From: Deltaproteobacteria bacterium
GTDB lineage: Bacteria > Desulfobacterota > JBBIRW01
Direction: 5' to 3'
DNA length: 64,000 nt
Assembly (NCBI GenBank): GCA_037441565.1
Contig: JBBIRW010000005.1
Coordinates: forward strand, 69,917-133,916
Every line of letters begins with the position of its first letter. The first letter of the stretch is position 1. Of this stretch, positions 20,791-29,406 are shown piece after piece. The notes beneath the pieces were generated by a model. That model saw nothing but the letters and a program-made list of their open reading frames with translations, had not been told where the DNA came from and ran no database searches. Both the position numbers and the translations under genes were made by a program.

Positions 20791-21141
20791 TTATACCATC
20801 CTTATAAGATCCCTACTTCCGCAGCTCGGACATACAAGTTCTCTGTTCATACATCTCCAGAGTCCATAAAATATTCCAGGAAGAAAAAGGATCAGGAGAA
20901 GGAGTTCAAGAAACAAGCTTCCCTTTAAACGATATTCGCAAAGTCCCCTGTATGTACAGTAAAGACACTGTATATAAAAGGGTGGGGGCTTTTTTATCCT
21001 TACGAATATGATGTAAAGAAGCGTAATGGCAGCAATTGTTGAAAAACCAAGGATATACCAGATCCATAAGGGTTCAACATGCATGAAACCTGAGAATTGT
21101 ATGGAAAGGATAGCGAATCCCTCCCCATATTTTTTCATCAA
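20791..21141 (-). CDS. small membrane protein with split zinc ribbon (LITAF-like topology)
   Basis: One N-terminal TM, then CLYC, 13 aa, a roughly 20-aa hydrophobic stretch (LFLELLLLILFLPGIFYGLW), then VCPSCG. Its start overlaps the upstream MerR-TPR stop (ATGA). Its stop lies 2 nt from the tRNA-Phe 3' end. Confidence 0.6.
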   Translation of the reverse strand: MMKKYGEGFAILSIQFSGFMHVEPLWIWYILGFSTIAAITLLYIIFVRIKKPPPFYIQCLYCTYRGLCEYRLKGSLFLELLLLILFLPGIFYGLWRCMNRELVCPSCGSRDLIRMV

Positions 21142-22004
21142 ACCCCCTTTTCCTCAAGCTCCTCAAGTCTTCTCCTTGCGATCTCTGCCCATACACTATC
21201 ACCATCTATCTGGAGGTATCTCCTCCAGTGATACTTTGCCCTTTTTAGCTGCCCTTTCTTCTCATATACCCTGGCAATATTGAAATGTGCATCAGCAAAG
21301 AGTGGATCACACTTGAGGGCCTTCAAATATGTCCTTCTTGCATCCTCGAGGCATCCTTTCTCCTCTAAGGCATTGCCCAGGTTGTAATATCCCTCGGGCC
21401 TGTGGGGTGATGAGATTATCCCTTTCTTGAATGCCTCTATAGCCTTCTCCATGAGACCCATGCTAAAGTGAATGTTGCCAAGCTCCATGTATGCTTCGTA
21501 AAAATTTTTCTTAAGGGCTATAGCCTTCTTCAGCGCATCAACTGCTCTTTCCATGGACACATCCTCGAGTTGGATCGCCTTCATAAAGTACTGCCAACTC
21601 TTTGATTCCTTTTCCGTTAGCCTCTCAACCTTTCCCTTCAGGATATCAAAAAGATCCGCGGTATCAAGTTCAAGGAGAAGTTGGCCGGTTGAGGGATCCA
21701 TTGCTATATCCCCCTTCACCACGTAAACATTCTTCCCCTTCACCATAAATCTTACCCTGACAGGTGGCTCCTCATCAGGGTAAATCCTCCGAAGGGATTC
21801 AACAGCCCTCCTCATCTTATTGAATGGCACACCCTTGTGAAGTAGTTCCTTTGCTGCTCTTAAAAAGACGAGGTCCCGAAAGCTATAAATTTTAATTTTT
21901 CCTTTTAACGATGGTCTGATAAACCCTATCCTCTCCCAATAATAGAGCCTCTGCCTCTTTATTCCGATAATTCTTGCTGCATCCACCCTGCGATAGCCTT
22001 CCAT
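21138..22004 (-). CDS. MerR-type HTH protein with C-terminal TPR repeats
   Basis: N-terminal HTH (RVDAARIIGIKRQRLYYWERIGFIRPS...YSFRDLVFLRAAKEL). The C-terminal half has 3-4 TPR-like repeats (YMELGNIHFSMG.., YYNLGNALEEKG.., HFNIARVYEKKG..). Confidence 0.75.
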   Translation of the reverse strand: MEGYRRVDAARIIGIKRQRLYYWERIGFIRPSLKGKIKIYSFRDLVFLRAAKELLHKGVPFNKMRRAVESLRRIYPDEEPPVRVRFMVKGKNVYVVKGDIAMDPSTGQLLLELDTADLFDILKGKVERLTEKESKSWQYFMKAIQLEDVSMERAVDALKKAIALKKNFYEAYMELGNIHFSMGLMEKAIEAFKKGIISSPHRPEGYYNLGNALEEKGCLEDARRTYLKALKCDPLFADAHFNIARVYEKKGQLKRAKYHWRRYLQIDGDSVWAEIARRRLEELEEKGV

Positions 22005-22030: not shown

Positions 22031-23458
22031 TTATATATTCGTCCTGAATGCAGAGAAGTGGTAGCCCGATTGATTCATAGCCTTCTCAGCAGCCTCAGAA
22101 ATTTCCCTGTCGTGATCGTGATCGAGTGCATAGATCCTCAGTTGAGCAACCCTTGCTGGTATATATTGAAAGAACTCCCTCAAGGGCTCCTTTGAAACCT
22201 CCCTCGTGGAAGGGTTATAAATATAGATCTGTTTGTCACCCATACTCAGAGGATTTATAGGCCTTGGGTCCTGAATTGCCATATCCACCCTTATCTCTTT
22301 TTTCCTCAGGGATGGTGGAAGAAGCCTTCTTATCTCCCTTTCCAGATCCTTTTCCTTTATAAAAGTAAAACCCCGAAGTGGCTCGCTTACAGGGAGAATT
22401 GACTCATATGCCATCTTCCATTTCACCTGTCGTGATAATATCTTTGACCACTCCTCTCCAAGCCTTTTTAAATCCCTTCTCCTCGATTGAACCCACTTCT
22501 TTACTTCTTCCAGTACAAACCAATCCGTAAGATTAAGGTATTCGTCCAGTTTCTTTGATGGATCGCCAGGGAACAGATTTGAAATTGTATCGTGAAAAAT
22601 CTCTTTTAGATGGAGATCTATTGCCCTTGTTGTTCTGTGATAATAGACATTCTGATAAAGATAAAGGCGGCTGTTAAGAAACATGGTGAGGGCACCGCTT
22701 CCTGCCCTGTGAAGAGTAATCCCCTTCTCCGTCAGGAATGTATAGTACATGAGCCGCTCAAGATCAATCGGACCAACAGCGACACCACACATATACGAAT
22801 CCCTCAATACATAATCAAGGTTGTCTACGGTGTAAACGCCACTGAATAAAGGCTGAACGAGCGAAAGCCAGAAGGGTATATTCTCATAATCGGCCATCTG
22901 ACCGCCTTTTCTCATGAGGTAACCAATATATTCAGGCCTTATTATCTCACCCTCATCAAAATATCCGTGAGGGCTTCTTCTTATCCCTTCAAGCACACCG
23001 GGGAACTCCTTCTTTATAATCATTTCACCCAGTATTTCGTGATCGAGGGAATAACTGGCGAGGAAATTGTCATCAAAAAAATGCCCGAAGGGACCGTGCC
23101 CTATATCGTGAAGAAGGGCTGTTATTCTCAATATCTCCTCAAAGAAGTACGGTGATGGAAAGGGTTCATTTTGAGATTTTAGCGATTCTTTCAGTGATGG
23201 ATAAAGGTGGATCGCAAACTTTCCCGCGATATCCATTGCACCTATTGAATGCTGGAATCTTGAATGTTCGGCTGATGGATATACCCATCTTGCACTCTGA
23301 AGCTGATATATCGATCTTAAACGTTGAACCCATGGTGTATCGATAATATCCTTTTCCGTTACCTCGTTTGAATCTCCTTTTTTCGGGACAGTGAAAACAA
23401 TATACTTATGTATGGGATCTGCAATGAGCGCAATCCCATCATGAAATCGATATTCCAT
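22031..23458 (-). CDS. HD-domain phosphohydrolase, SAMHD1/dNTP-triphosphohydrolase-like
   Basis: DPIH..I...ID.PWVQRLRSIYQL, HSRFQHSIG, LLHDIGHGPFGHFFD, YTVDNLDYVLRDSYMCG. This is the motif order of SAMHD1/EF1143-type HD hydrolases. Confidence 0.82.
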   Translation of the reverse strand: MEYRFHDGIALIADPIHKYIVFTVPKKGDSNEVTEKDIIDTPWVQRLRSIYQLQSARWVYPSAEHSRFQHSIGAMDIAGKFAIHLYPSLKESLKSQNEPFPSPYFFEEILRITALLHDIGHGPFGHFFDDNFLASYSLDHEILGEMIIKKEFPGVLEGIRRSPHGYFDEGEIIRPEYIGYLMRKGGQMADYENIPFWLSLVQPLFSGVYTVDNLDYVLRDSYMCGVAVGPIDLERLMYYTFLTEKGITLHRAGSGALTMFLNSRLYLYQNVYYHRTTRAIDLHLKEIFHDTISNLFPGDPSKKLDEYLNLTDWFVLEEVKKWVQSRRRDLKRLGEEWSKILSRQVKWKMAYESILPVSEPLRGFTFIKEKDLEREIRRLLPPSLRKKEIRVDMAIQDPRPINPLSMGDKQIYIYNPSTREVSKEPLREFFQYIPARVAQLRIYALDHDHDREISEAAEKAMNQSGYHFSAFRTNI

Positions 23459-23504: not shown

Positions 23505-23726
23505 TCATCCACCCCTTATCTTTGGGACAAGCAACATTATATCACCATCAGCAAGAAGCTCCTCTCTCTTCTTCTCTACACCGTTCACCCTGGCCTCCAT
23601 ATTTCCATTCACACCCAGTTCATCCATTAAATCACCAATTGTTATTGGGGCTTCCTTTGTATAGGTGGAAACCTCCTTCCCCATTATAACTACCTTTACT
23701 GTTATCTTTCCGTTTTTTCTTGCCAT
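23505..23726 (-). CDS. ubiquitin-like / ThiS-MoaD-like small protein ending in Arg-Gly-Gly
   Basis: 73 aa. C-terminus is ...LLVPKIRGG followed directly by TGA (GG codons 23508-23513). GGAGG lies 4 nt upstream of the ATG. The alternating hydrophobic pattern fits a beta-grasp fold. Confidence 0.75.
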   Translation of the reverse strand: MARKNGKITVKVVIMGKEVSTYTKEAPITIGDLMDELGVNGNMEARVNGVEKKREELLADGDIMLLVPKIRGG

Positions 23727-23738
23727 GCTGCCTCCTTC

Positions 23739-24398
23739 CTAATTAATTGTTAATGTTAGTGTTTTCAAATCAAAAATAATCTCCTTCTGTAAATCCTCTC
23801 CCATTAAGAATTTTTTGATCTGATTACCAACAATACTCGCAATGGCAAATCCCGTATAAGCGATGGCCCTTGCTGTACACGGCAGGTTGAATGAATCCTG
23901 ATCGGAATAGAGGGTTTTCTCATAAAAGCGAACATCCCCAATATCAATAGGTCTAATCGTATATGTCCTCATCACCTCTCCACCCATTCTACTCTCTATG
24001 TACAGTGGAACCGATGCTTTGAATCTCACCGAATTCACCCATATATCCTTTCTGTCTTTCATACTGTCAACAGCGCATACAACAATACCTGTTAGCCTCT
24101 CCCTTTCCACCCTCATAATTCTACCTTCCGCCTTTATCCCTGTTGACTCATATATGATCTCTGAAAGTGCATCCGCCTTGGCAATTCCCACATCCTTTGG
24201 GCGATAGATCTGGTTGGGGATATTGTGTTCCTCAACTATATCGTGATCCATAAGGACTAACCTTCTGAACCCCATCTTTGCGAGAAGTAAAGCAAGAAAG
24301 GACCCTATCCCTCCAAGACCTATGATATTTATCCTTGTATCCAGCGTCTCTTCATTCAATATATCCATCTGTCTTAGCAGATCCATCTTTAACCCCAC
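23739..24398 (-). CDS. minimal ThiF/MoeB-type E1-like adenylyltransferase
   Basis: Rossmann motif NIIGLGGIGSFLALLLAKMG, then DHDIVEEHNIPNQ and VDSMKDR motifs. There are no CxxC zinc pairs and no rhodanese or extra domains. The track start at 24398 is GTG. The ATG at 24386 lies 2 nt after the JAMM stop and is equally plausible. Confidence 0.8.
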   Translation of the reverse strand: MGLKMDLLRQMDILNEETLDTRINIIGLGGIGSFLALLLAKMGFRRLVLMDHDIVEEHNIPNQIYRPKDVGIAKADALSEIIYESTGIKAEGRIMRVERERLTGIVVCAVDSMKDRKDIWVNSVRFKASVPLYIESRMGGEVMRTYTIRPIDIGDVRFYEKTLYSDQDSFNLPCTARAIAYTGFAIASIVGNQIKKFLMGEDLQKEIIFDLKTLTLTIN

Positions 24399-24940
24399 CA
24401 GAGGGTCTCATACCTTCCATCATGAGGATATATGTAGAGAACCTTTTTATCTATATCCCTCATTACCTCTTTTCTCAAATAATTCATATCAAAATCCCTC
24501 TCTCCAATTCCGACCAGTTTAACATCGTTTATGGTTCTCCTAACAGGTTCCCTCCAGTCAATCCTCACCATATACTCCCCCCTCTTATTGCCAACTATTG
24601 AAATCAGCCAGTCCACAGGGAATGAATCTATTGTACTCTCGTCTGTCTCACTCCATGAAAGATCCCATATTGCGTGACTGTGCCACCAAACCCTTATCTG
24701 CCATGGATCGAGCCCATCATTTATGGCATCCTCAAGCAGATTGAAAAGTGCTCCAGTGTCGAGCTTTGTTTCCCATAGGGATGCTTCTTGATGAACAAGA
24801 AAGAGATTCTCAATAACGGGTATCCCCTCTCCCTTTGAGACGAATCCTATACCACAGATTTCGCCTGGACATATTTCAATATATAACTTTAACTTCTCAA
24901 GTGCCATCCATTTTATATAAACATGATCAATGGTGTGCAT
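24389..24940 (-). CDS. JAMM/MPN+ metalloprotease (JAB domain)
   Basis: Glu in PGEICGIGF plus HSHAIWDLSWSETD, which matches H-x-H-x7-S-x2-D (codons 24641-24682). The preferred start is the ATG at 24940, preceded by GAGGTGGAGG. The track ORF extends to 24988. Confidence 0.82.
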   Translation of the reverse strand: MHTIDHVYIKWMALEKLKLYIEICPGEICGIGFVSKGEGIPVIENLFLVHQEASLWETKLDTGALFNLLEDAINDGLDPWQIRVWWHSHAIWDLSWSETDESTIDSFPVDWLISIVGNKRGEYMVRIDWREPVRRTINDVKLVGIGERDFDMNYLRKEVMRDIDKKVLYIYPHDGRYETLWWG

Positions 24941-26126
24941 CCTCCACCTCGGGCCAGTTTGTAATGGGAATCCTCCAGTCATTAGCATTTACGGTCTTTA
25001 GATAATCAATCAGTACCTCAATGGCTGTCACAAATTGATACTCTCCAATGAGCCTTGCCACCCCTGCCCTTATGCTCCCAAGGCATGGTTTACCATAAGA
25101 GATATGAGGATGATCAAATATTTTATAAGGATTAGTAAGATTTTTTATGAGCAGTTCACCATCAGTTGATATCTTTATCAGGAATGATCCTATCCTGTAT
25201 TTTTTATTTTCATATTCGACAACGATATCCTTTGTATATACAAAAATCTTACTATCCCTGACCTGCACATCCCTTACCTCAGGAATGTTCAAAAGGTTAT
25301 TGAATTCATTTAGAGTAAAAGAGCTATCCTTCTCGTTTCTGAGAATGCATATCCTCCTCCAGTAGTCTGCCATCAATTTACTGCATTGGGTGATTCTTCT
25401 GGAGTATTTCTCTATTGTTCTTTCCATTGCCTGCATCTCCTGCTCTAGAAACTTTAATTCCTCCTCCGCCCCCTTTTTCACCATTTCTTTATATTCCAGC
25501 ATATTTAACACCCTGTGATTATCGAAATAATCCATCTCTTCATCCTCCGCCTCCCTCACCATCCGCATGAATATCTCTCTGAATTTTTGGCTACCTGCAT
25601 AACTTATCCCTTCCCAAAATTCAATCGATTCATTGATTGCCCTGTTCAGGCACTTTCTGATGAGTATCCTCCTTTCCACATCATCCTGATCGATTATATT
25701 AAAGAGTACATATATGTTGTTACCCACAAGCTCCATCACATCAACTCCATCATCATCCCTGATGATCTTACCCCTTCCCGAACCCCTTGATCCCTTGTAG
25801 GCTAGATCCGCTCCCTCCTTAAGAGGTATGGAAAATACACGACTTATTCTTTTCACTGGTTTTCCAGCCCATAATCGAAAAAGAAACATCTTCACTGGAA
25901 TTGAAAATAGATGCATATATAGCTTTCTTCCTCCTCTTGGGGCAGAATAACCTCCAGGGCAGAAGAAAACGACCATATCCATCTGGAGGGCTTTTGAATG
26001 ATATCTGCAAATTTCACTAATACCCTTCAGGGGGGAGTTCTCATATTCGGGATAGAATATCTCTTCTCCTTTATGGTTTATAGAAAGTACATATTCCTTT
26101 ACGGCTCGGGAAGATAATATAGACAT
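24927..26126 (-). CDS. 399-aa protein: unknown N-terminal domain, coiled coil, and C-terminal UBC/E2-like domain (candidate catalytic Cys348)
   Basis: The C-terminal roughly 110 aa has three beta-strand-like segments, then DHPHISYGKPCLGSIRAGVARLIGE. HPH is at 25104-25112 and the Cys TGC at 25083-25085. This resembles the E2 HPN flap, Cys and helix. The central segment is charged and heptad-rich. The CDS itself is solid. The E2 assignment is inference. Confidence 0.6.
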   Translation of the reverse strand: MSILSSRAVKEYVLSINHKGEEIFYPEYENSPLKGISEICRYHSKALQMDMVVFFCPGGYSAPRGGRKLYMHLFSIPVKMFLFRLWAGKPVKRISRVFSIPLKEGADLAYKGSRGSGRGKIIRDDDGVDVMELVGNNIYVLFNIIDQDDVERRILIRKCLNRAINESIEFWEGISYAGSQKFREIFMRMVREAEDEEMDYFDNHRVLNMLEYKEMVKKGAEEELKFLEQEMQAMERTIEKYSRRITQCSKLMADYWRRICILRNEKDSSFTLNEFNNLLNIPEVRDVQVRDSKIFVYTKDIVVEYENKKYRIGSFLIKISTDGELLIKNLTNPYKIFDHPHISYGKPCLGSIRAGVARLIGEYQFVTAIEVLIDYLKTVNANDWRIPITNWPEVEDAHH

Positions 26127-26135
26127 TATAATTAA

Positions 26136-26164
26136 ATCTTAAAGACCCTTATGGAGGGTGTCAA
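26136..26164 (-). promoter_or_regulatory. putative sigma70-type promoter of the Ubl cassette (leaderless geometry)
   Basis: Minus strand TTGACA (26164-26159), a 17-nt spacer, TAAGAT (26141-26136), then 9 nt to the ATG at 26126. No Shine-Dalgarno sequence in between. Confidence 0.35.
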
Positions 26165-26812: not shown

Positions 26813-27196
26813 ATGAAAAGTGGGATACATGGCTTTACATTAATAGAATTACTTATAGCTCTTAGCATTATCGCAATCCTTCTTGGTATTGCAATCCCCT
26901 CCTATATACATATCAGAGCAAAAGTCCTTCAATCTGAACCACAAGTAAACTTTGCTACCCTCCTTTCCCTCGAATTTGTTTATAAGGGGCAATATCAAAC
27001 CTTTACATCCGATTTGCAGGCCCTTGGTTTCAATTTAGATGGAAAGGCCTGCTATACCTATACTGTTCTTGAGGCTACACGCGACCACTTTCTCATTCAG
27101 GCCAGTGGGAATCTGGACTTAGATTCTACACTGGATATATGGACCCTTGATCATGAAGGAAGGATCAGACATATCCGCAATGACATAGCTGAATGA
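26813..27196 (+). CDS. type IV pilin-like / pseudopilin protein (prepilin N-terminal methylation motif)
   Basis: Class III signal peptide MKSGIHG/FTLIELLIALSIIAILLGIAIP, with Glu at +5. Confidence 0.8.
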   Translation: MKSGIHGFTLIELLIALSIIAILLGIAIPSYIHIRAKVLQSEPQVNFATLLSLEFVYKGQYQTFTSDLQALGFNLDGKACYTYTVLEATRDHFLIQASGNLDLDSTLDIWTLDHEGRIRHIRNDIAE

Positions 27197-27204
27197 TTTT
27201 AAGA

Positions 27205-27393
27205 TCAGGCACTCTCTTTTGCTACTATCCTTCGCATTCTTCTGATTGCCTTTTTAATCTTGATCCTCTTCCTTTGACTTTTACTCAGGAAGAACTGATG
27301 CCTCTTCAGCTGGGGCAATACATTCTGCTCGAAGTCCTTTTTTAATTTCTTAATCGATTTCTCAAGCTCTCCTTCTTTAACAATAATCTTCAT
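27205..27393 (-). CDS. rpsU: 30S ribosomal protein S21 (probable)
   Basis: 62 aa and very basic. The pattern V.V...E..E.A/SIKK.KK......L..L.R...F..KS..RK.K...A.RR resembles S21. Confidence 0.65.
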   Translation of the reverse strand: MKIIVKEGELEKSIKKLKKDFEQNVLPQLKRHQFFLSKSQRKRIKIKKAIRRMRRIVAKESA

Positions 27394-28965: not shown

Positions 28966-29406
28966 TCAGGCAGAGGGGTAAAATTTCTCATCCTTTATTA
29001 ATTCATACAATGGTTTCCTTCCTGCAAAACCCTCATTCAGTCCATGCCAGTATGAGATCCTCTCCTCATCGATCTGCCAGCAAAGGTATACCTCCCGACC
29101 ATCTATTAATGCGGGAAAATCAACCAGGCCTCTTTCCACATCTTTGAGGATACACCCGTACATATCAACAGTACTTAGCTTCTCCTGTATTTCATCCATA
29201 ATAAACTGAACCTCTTCTTTTAACTTGAAAAACCCTTTTATACCAACGCCTTCGCCCTTCCATACCATCTTGAGGCTTTCCTCGAGGAGAAGTTGTTTTT
29301 CAAAGGCCTCCCTTCTCTTATCCCTGATCTCTTCGAGAATTCTCCTCAGCAGGGGTATCATCCTGTTTGCCTCTTCAATGGTGAAAAATTTCAACGGCAT
29401 AATCAC
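28966..29406 (-). CDS. conserved hypothetical protein (DUF2203-like)
   Basis: The N-terminus FTIEEANRMIPLLRRIL and the C-terminus GLVDFPALIDGREVYLCWQIDEERISYWHGLNEGFAGRKPL match my recollection of the DUF2203 family. Confidence 0.5.
   Translation of the reverse strand: MIMPLKFFTIEEANRMIPLLRRILEEIRDKRREAFEKQLLLEESLKMVWKGEGVGIKGFFKLKEEVQFIMDEIQEKLSTVDMYGCILKDVERGLVDFPALIDGREVYLCWQIDEERISYWHGLNEGFAGRKPLYELIKDEKFYPSA

Follow-up and report, generated by a model that had tools for sequence, protein, structure and literature searches.

What does a bacterium do with a protein that carries what appears to be the active site of a ubiquitin-conjugating enzyme (E2), and with which other proteins would that protein act? 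The question is raised by gene X, an open reading frame (ORF) in a stretch of 64,000 nucleotides (the window) from a Deltaproteobacteria bacterium (Desulfobacterota, lineage JBBIRW01; assembly GCA_037441565.1, contig JBBIRW010000005.1, positions 69,917 to 133,916 of the forward strand). A first-pass annotation, made from the letters and the ORF translations, had read X as an E2-like catalytic module fused to an N-terminal domain and a coiled coil. From sequence comparison and structure prediction, we consider X to be probably the E2 of a four-gene ubiquitin-like conjugation cassette, whose other members are a JAMM peptidase, an activating enzyme (E1) and a ubiquitin-like protein (Ubl). The parts of gene X, in positions of the window, are as follows:

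24927..26126, minus strand: gene X, 399 amino acids, comprising N-domain, coiled coil and E2-like domain; stop codon included
25602..26099, minus strand: N-terminal alpha/beta domain (residues about 10-175), no assigned fold
25338..25514, minus strand: heptad-periodic helix (residues 205-263), probably a coiled coil
24930..25325, minus strand: divergent UBC/E2-fold domain (residues 268-399)
25104..25112, minus strand: H339-P340-H341 flap motif (codons cat-cct-cat), counterpart of HPN
25083..25085, minus strand: Cys348 (TGC), the predicted thioester-forming catalytic cysteine, aligned with UBE2L3 Cys86

The ORF, motif and codon coordinates given in the first-pass annotation agree exactly with those found on re-check. 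The motif string DHPHISYGKPCLGSIRAGVARLIGEYQF is present in the translation of the ORF, and the protein contains DHPHISYGKPCLGS, which spans both HPH and Cys348. Close homologues of X fall into 28 clusters, and in an alignment of 21 of them residues D338, H339, P340, H341, P347, C348 and G350 are invariant; since these proteins are only 24-92% identical overall, the HPH...C motif is not a chance occurrence. Among 187 domains from distant relatives, H339 is conserved in 92%, P340 in 99.5%, H341 in 93% and C348 in 96%, the H341 position being occupied by N in 5 of the 187. The four residues that the first-pass annotation had singled out are thus strongly conserved at both ranges. Its measure of the His-to-Cys spacing in X, 9 residues, is also borne out; UBE2L3 has 10, and the hidden Markov model (HMM) alignment with UBE2L3 takes a one-residue gap at this point.

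Does the C-terminal part of X adopt the ubiquitin-conjugating (UBC) fold? In the AlphaFold model of the E2 domain alone (predicted local distance difference test score, pLDDT, 82.5; predicted template modelling score 0.79; pLDDT 76 for full-length X), the elements follow one another as helix, six short strands, flap, Cys and two helices. The first helix covers residues 268-278, the strands residues 284-290, 293-298, 301-305, 308-313, 315-320 and 325-329, and the last helices residues 350-361 and 365-377. This is the UBC order of elements, and the strand-like segments originally picked out in the sequence coincide with predicted strands. A phmmer search of the PDB sequences with the single full-length X gave noise only, so that the E2 relationship becomes visible only through family profiles. 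With a profile of residues 262-399 from the close homologues, UBE2L3 ranked top among PDB matches at E 0.13, and with a profile of 20 far more diverse domains it reached E 4.7e-4, 17 of the 20 best PDB matches being E2s. The latter alignment to UBE2L3 is in register throughout: helix alpha1, the beta-meander, HPH on HPN and Cys348 on Cys86. Profile-profile comparison by hhalign with five canonical E2s gave a probability of 95.6% and E 1.2e-8 over 106 columns, once more with HPH/HPN and Cys aligned. Finally, the five best Foldseek matches of the E2-domain model in the PDB were all E2s (UbcH7, UBE2L6), with probabilities of 0.89-0.99; RWD domains also appear in the Foldseek list for X, and those matches of the full-length model that did not recur with the E2 domain alone were all insignificant. 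No Pfam, NCBIfam, PHROGs or PADLOC family was matched by X and 10-20 diverse relatives.

The company that X keeps points in the same direction. X heads a translationally coupled four-gene cassette on the minus strand, in the order X, JAMM peptidase, E1 and Ubl, with boundaries that overlap or nearly abut. Its partners are the following:

24389..24940, minus strand: JAMM/JAB metallopeptidase, 183 amino acids, overlapping gene X by 14 nucleotides; start from homologues
23739..24386, minus strand: minimal ThiF-like E1 adenylating enzyme, 215 amino acids; Pfam ThiF at 1.4e-18
23505..23726, minus strand: ThiS/MoaD-like Ubl, 73 amino acids, ending ...VPKIRGG-stop; weak ThiS/MoaD matches

The JAMM signature E...HSHx7SxxD lies at 24641-24682, and its E, HxH, S and D residues are invariant in the family; the distant orthologue in locus L041 matches Pfam Prok-JAB. 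The longest ORF for this gene starts at 24988 (24389-24988, minus strand; 62-nucleotide overlap with X), and the start was set at 24940 because homologue gene calls are 183-184 amino acids long. For the E1, the ATG at 24386 is probably the start, in preference to the GTG at 24398. The best match of the E1 family profile is E. coli ThiF (E 3.8e-15), and the invariant Cys170 of the E1 (23877-23879) aligns with Cys184 of that protein. The E1 lacks a CxxC zinc site, and it also matches the PADLOC E1-E2 models and NCBIfam cap2_3; X, the JAB peptidase and the Ubl have no PADLOC match. All 19 of 19 orthologous Ubls end in GG-stop. No E3 gene is found in the cassette, as the first-pass annotation had held.

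We conclude that the C-terminal 130 or so residues of X are, as predicted from sequence and model, a genuine if divergent member of the UBC superfamily. The E2-like reading is supported because the PDB profile search, the profile-profile comparison and the fold search agree independently, and further because the operon holds an E1, a GG-ended Ubl and a JAMM peptidase; the original proposal of an E2-like module is sustained on all of these grounds. Relative to canonical E2s (UBE2L3/UbcH7, UBE2L6), the order alpha1, beta-meander, HPx flap, Cys and crossover helix is the same and the matches are in register, whereas X has a His-Cys spacing one residue shorter, six short strands where canonical E2s have four, a tail with the conserved sequence KTVNxxxWxxPIxxW, and the N-domain and coiled coil upstream. 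UBE2W also has HPH. Several observations weigh against identifying X as a conjugating E2. The Foldseek E2 matches have E values of just 0.01-0.04 and template modelling (TM) scores of 0.44-0.49, which marks the fold as divergent, and the Pfam families UQ_con (PF00179) and Prok-E2 were matched neither by X at E<=0.1 nor by 20 diverse domains at E<=10. The canonical YPxxPP motif, the Trp after the Cys (the tryptophan of WSPA) and the last, C-terminal helices are absent from the E2 domain. The proteins nearest to the E1 and the Ubl, ThiF and ThiS respectively, belong to sulfur-carrier systems and not to protein conjugation; nothing that could dock E1 to E2, for instance a UFD domain, can be seen; and any function for the N-domain is purely hypothetical.

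How might the four products work together? In the proposed scheme, the 215-residue ThiF-like E1 would adenylate the C-terminal Gly-Gly of the 73-residue Ubl and probably hold it as a thioester on Cys170, in the crossover loop. The next acceptor would be Cys348 of X, whose active site is of the UBC type and has the HPH flap; an amine of the target would then receive the Ubl, with no separate E3 involved. X probably oligomerizes through its coiled coil, and the N-domain, where present, is probably a docking site for a target or partner. Conjugation would be reversed by the JAMM peptidase, which in those relatives that have extended or tandem poly-Ubls would also mature them.

The close homologues of X are mostly from Methylomirabilota (NC10), with in addition a Thermodesulfobacteriota metagenome-assembled genome (MAG) 92% identical to the window, and X adjoins JAB and/or E1-Ubl in 39 of 39 close loci, none being without such a partner. 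Three arrangements occur: X-JAB-E1-Ubl, in the window, its relatives and one NC10 genome; DUF2203-X_A-E1-Ubl; and X_B-JAB. At least eight NC10 genomes hold both half-cassettes on separate contigs, X_A-E1-Ubl with an X of about 420 amino acids and X_B-JAB with one of about 378 (L019/L037, L016/L035, L023/L036, L020/L038, L027/L032, L021/L029, L017/L028, L024/L039). The HPH...C motif is kept in both X_A and X_B, and such pairs suggest either a split system or a heteromeric E2 pair formed through the coiled coils. The possibility that two further genes, of 267 and 101 amino acids, which lie downstream of X_B-JAB in L004, form another E2/Ubl pair was weighed, and nothing supports it. In all eight of the distant contexts retrieved (L040, L041, L043, L044, L046, L048, the IMG/VR viral contig L047 and the phage-like contig L042), the order is X-JAB-E1, usually followed by the Ubl. 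These comparisons establish what each part is homologous to, that the catalytic residues are conserved and that the genes stay strictly linked across distant lineages and in a phage.

How far does the family extend? An exhaustive profile search with the C-terminal domain recovered 3,015 representative clusters (50% identity) at E<=1e-3 and 1,121 at E<=1e-10. Cluster annotation look-ups returned only 'hypothetical protein', and ten diverse members matched no Pfam, NCBIfam or PHROG family. Architectures were compared in a sample of 176 proteins (150 best matches plus close homologues): N-domain, coiled coil and E2 in 86, coiled coil and E2 only in 79, tandem E2 domains in 10, and several N-domain repeats in one, in which the N-domain profile detects four. 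The arrangement found in X is therefore the commonest architecture of the family and no oddity of this gene. Some members carry N-terminal hydrophobic stretches that, judged by eye, are apparently transmembrane. The Ubls of relatives vary as well: one, of the L041 type, has a 19-residue tail after RGG, and two end in G-N. In L046 (7001-11421), the Ubl is a 239-residue protein in which a ThiS-like unit ending in VKGN occurs three times in tandem, resembling a poly-ubiquitin precursor, and one protein has two E2-like domains, the first copy with APH...C and the second, lacking both His residues as well as the Cys, like a ubiquitin E2 variant (UEV). The RGG-plus-19 and triple-repeat Ubls would need processing by a peptidase, and the JAMM enzyme would therefore have a maturation role beside deconjugation.

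Viral relatives were sought in several ways. A degenerate DNA pattern for the HPH..PCLGN motif found one viral contig, no isolate phage or plasmid was matched in tblastn searches with family members, and a search with P0170 found no related loci on viral contigs. On the IMG/VR contig UViG_3300025151_000280 (L047, 338-3880), a 78-residue Ubl-like ORF stands with genes for a 589-residue E2-like protein, a JAMM peptidase and an E1, immediately upstream of genes for phage replication, one AAA/RecA-like and one encoding a primase-helicase. In the 589-residue protein the E2-like domain lies near the N-terminus (RHPHISNGEPCLGN) and is followed by a long uncharacterized C-terminal region.

What, then, do the N-domain and the coiled coil contribute? 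Both elements of the fusion described in the first-pass annotation are real. Residues 205-263 show an a/d hydrophobic heptad periodicity that was reached by 0 of 2000 shuffles, and residues 185-270 include 19 acidic and 16 basic residues, so the stretch originally called charged and heptad-like deserves that description. The N-domain is confidently modelled by AlphaFold, and its residues G119, D124, G127, N137 and Y139 are invariant among the close homologues. No motif had been recognized in residues 1 to about 170, and searches with residues 1-175 likewise gave no match in Pfam, NCBIfam, PHROG, PADLOC or the PDB sequences. The N-domain family profile gave nothing meaningful against the PDB sequences (best match DELLA, E 0.56), and Foldseek of the full-length model found no match for the N-domain fold in the PDB. 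That the N-domain is a duplicate of the C-terminal E2 domain is ruled out by hhalign (probability 0.2%). The N-domain appears to be an accessory module, because it is missing in about 45% of the 176 members examined, with the operon unchanged there, and repeated in some others. Such a module fits, without proving, the role of an adaptor in the manner of the E2/E3 hybrid that the first-pass annotation had suggested. In eukaryotes, the hybrids UBE2O and BIRC6 have the UBC domain inside a larger, self-targeting protein; the extra domains of X are unrelated to theirs in sequence, and substrate selection by its N-domain is only putative. In homologue P0028 (411 amino acids, ENA), the opening part of the N-domain has given way to a segment like the C-terminal part of MoaA (PF06463, with an FCxxCDRSRLT motif), which could be either a true fusion with a molybdopterin-synthesis domain or a chimera of assembly or gene calling.

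Several bacterial systems invite comparison. The closest in composition is BilABCD, which also comes as four-gene Ubl/E2/JAB/E1 cassettes, with a JAB that can pre-process the Ubl and with diverse Ubls including multi-beta-grasp forms. In the Bil E2s, however, the HPN histidine is missing and a conserved His follows the Cys (PMC1779556, row 6d; 10.1101/2023.09.26.559546), and BilD, the E1 of Type II Bil, is a large protein of several domains, with the Cys in a domain of its own and a zinc site (PMC1779556; 10.1101/2023.09.26.559546). X keeps HPH before the Cys, its E1 is a single domain of 215 residues without zinc-binding cysteines, the gene order differs, and the PADLOC search gave no match; the cassette thus resembles BilABCD in composition and fails its defining features. 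Bub (operon type 6E) likewise combines a bacterial E1, an E2, a Ubl and a deconjugating peptidase. Bub works through oxyester intermediates, with a peptidase-E1 fusion that lacks the catalytic Cys and a serine protease as deconjugase (PMC11601596), whereas in the cassette of X invariant cysteines are retained in both E1 and E2, and a JAMM enzyme encoded by its own gene serves as the peptidase. CBASS Cap2/Cap3 and the 6A-MBL operons share related E1 adenylation domains and a JAB partner, but Cap2 is an E1-E2 fusion that conjugates the cGAS-like enzyme and has no free Ubl, while E1, E2 and Ubl are separate genes in all of the loci described here. Lastly, the ThiF/ThiS and MoeB/MoaD pairs resemble the E1 (closest to ThiF, with the Cys184 equivalent) and the Ubl (ThiS/MoaD-like, with a GG terminus); those pairs lack an E2 and a JAB, and the present cassette lacks sulfur-donor and biosynthetic genes and the CxxC zinc site.

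Could the same chemistry serve in conflict, with a Bil-like anti-phage system, or a phage-borne anti-host one, tagging the proteins of the invader? The precedents are all of this kind, in that the characterized bacterial E1/E2/Ubl/JAB operons (Bil, CBASS Cap2/Cap3) function in phage defense (PMC10557695, PMC11601596). Moreover, family members occur on a virus-like contig and on the IMG/VR contig beside phage replication genes, the best BFVD viral structure matches are uncharacterized proteins of 420-1146 amino acids (E 6e-5, TMq 0.63), and an HD dNTPase-like gene lies directly downstream of the cassette in the window. Against this reading, no defense genes were seen near the cassette, three of its products go without a PADLOC match, and its flanks are housekeeping genes (pyrE and rpsU in the window; RF-1, L31, S2 and EF-Ts in L044). 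Its presence in many Methylomirabilota genomes, with conserved local synteny and paralogous half-cassettes, looks like vertical inheritance. Considering all of this, a role in conflict seems unlikely.

A pathway of sulfur-carrier or small-molecule chemistry is more doubtful still. Here the ThiS-like protein would be adenylated and thiocarboxylated by the E1, X would be a sulfur-relay or acyl-transfer enzyme acting through Cys348, and the JAB peptidase would free the product from the Ubl C-terminus, as Mec+ does in the CysO pathway. Operons of JAB, E1 and ThiS devoted to sulfur chemistry are indeed known (PMC1779556, rows 4a-4e), and the resemblance of the E1 to E. coli ThiF with its invariant Cys at the Cys184 position, the weak ThiS and MoaD matches of the Ubl and the housekeeping surroundings would all suit such a pathway. 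Against it stand the UBC fold and E2 active-site motif of X, and tandem poly-Ubls and tandem E2 domains in relatives are hard to square with sulfur transfer. The E1 also has no rhodanese domain, and the partners that such chemistry calls for (rhodanese, cysteine desulfurase/IscS, ThiG/MoaE, cysteine synthase/CysM and other biosynthetic enzymes) are conserved in none of about 47 loci. Finally, that X is a non-catalytic UEV/RWD-like scaffold binding Ubl or E1, with E2-independent conjugation as in archaeal SAMPylation, is very improbable because 96% of the domains keep the Cys (and 92-99% the HPH residues): the fold is divergent with RWD domains among the Foldseek matches, E2-independent conjugation does exist in the SAMP/UbaA and Urm1 systems (PMC9574740), and the second domain copy of some tandem proteins lacks His or Cys, but such losses are limited to some of the 187 domains, for example second tandem copies, as expected of an active enzyme with degenerate partners.

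The surroundings of the cassette offer some further observations. In the 47-bp gap between pyrE and X there is a promoter-like site, which is weak evidence, since promoter-like sites across the region are in total no more numerous than shuffling would give:

26136..26164, minus strand: promoter-like site, 10/12 consensus matches

Upstream, a prepilin-type N-methyl-domain gene (26813-27196, plus strand) breaks an otherwise uniform run of minus-strand genes; it lies, together with the gene for the 62-residue ribosomal protein S21 (27205-27393, minus strand), between pyrE and an M3-peptidase-like gene. A DUF2203 gene (28966-29406, minus strand; Pfam 1.1e-37) stands three genes upstream of X in the window and in a relative, and directly upstream of X_A in at least 13 NC10 loci (L001-L003, L016-L025, L030, L033); neither the X_B-JAB loci nor the distant cassettes have it. 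It may be a partner or target particular to this lineage, or its position may reflect mere synteny. Downstream, a 46-bp gap after the Ubl leads to the 475-residue HD-domain protein (22031-23458, minus strand; HD and HD_assoc_2, weak dGTPase/dNTPase-like matches), and a MerR-HTH/TPR gene follows on the same strand after a further 26 bp (21138-22004, minus strand). These two genes are probably not members of the cassette, because they are syntenic only in the 92%-identical relative. A 3.8-kb contig of a 'Candidatus Aenigmatarchaeota archaeon' MAG (L011, GCA_039090655.1) carries a 72%-identical whole cassette with the same pyrE and prepilin-like flanks; considering that its synteny is bacterial and the contig short, it is probably mis-binned. 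Among the eight distant contexts, ClpA/ClpB-like AAA+ genes adjoin the cassette in two (L046, 12240-14342; L048, 8296-10773), and WD40 or Ser/Thr-kinase-FHA genes in two (L041, 2129-4184; L048, 5615-7592). Such neighbors may hint at a link to protein unfolding or signaling.

What does the cassette add to the known bacterial ubiquitination-like operons? The operon catalogue of Iyer et al. 2006 (PMC1779556) does not contain it, and the literature searched, which included that paper, Chambers et al. 2023 and Ye et al. 2024, does not describe it; an earlier mention is possible, for example in the E2-fold survey of Burroughs et al. 2008. Among such operons, it looks like an undescribed protein-tagging pathway of bacteria and phages. 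A broader picture can be put forward tentatively. The cassette may represent a widespread ubiquitination-like pathway of uncultured bacteria and phages (about 3,000 E2 clusters), with a eukaryote-type HPN/HPH-Cys E2 closer in sequence and fold to UBE2L3 than to any solved bacterial E2, the smallest known type of E1, and no E3, target selection lying in modular N-terminal repeats and the coiled coil. In Methylomirabilota it might then be a vertically inherited housekeeping tagging system, perhaps tied to AAA+ unfoldases, and not a defense system.

Protein conjugation by CBASS Cap2, Bil and Bub is a recent discovery, and these systems are relevant to the origin of eukaryotic ubiquitination. The cassette of gene X would add a fourth bacterial conjugating lineage, one that is very abundant in metagenomes and has an E2 with a canonical active-site motif. 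Because its E1 barely exceeds ThiF, the cassette sits between the sulfur-carrier systems and true E1-E2 cascades, and because it is compact, with just four small genes and a Ubl encoded in its mature form, it is directly testable in vitro and in E. coli. Membrane-anchored E2s, tandem active and degenerate E2s, N-domains repeated as many as four times, poly-Ubl precursors and copies carried by phages would together provide natural experiments on how substrates are selected without an E3.

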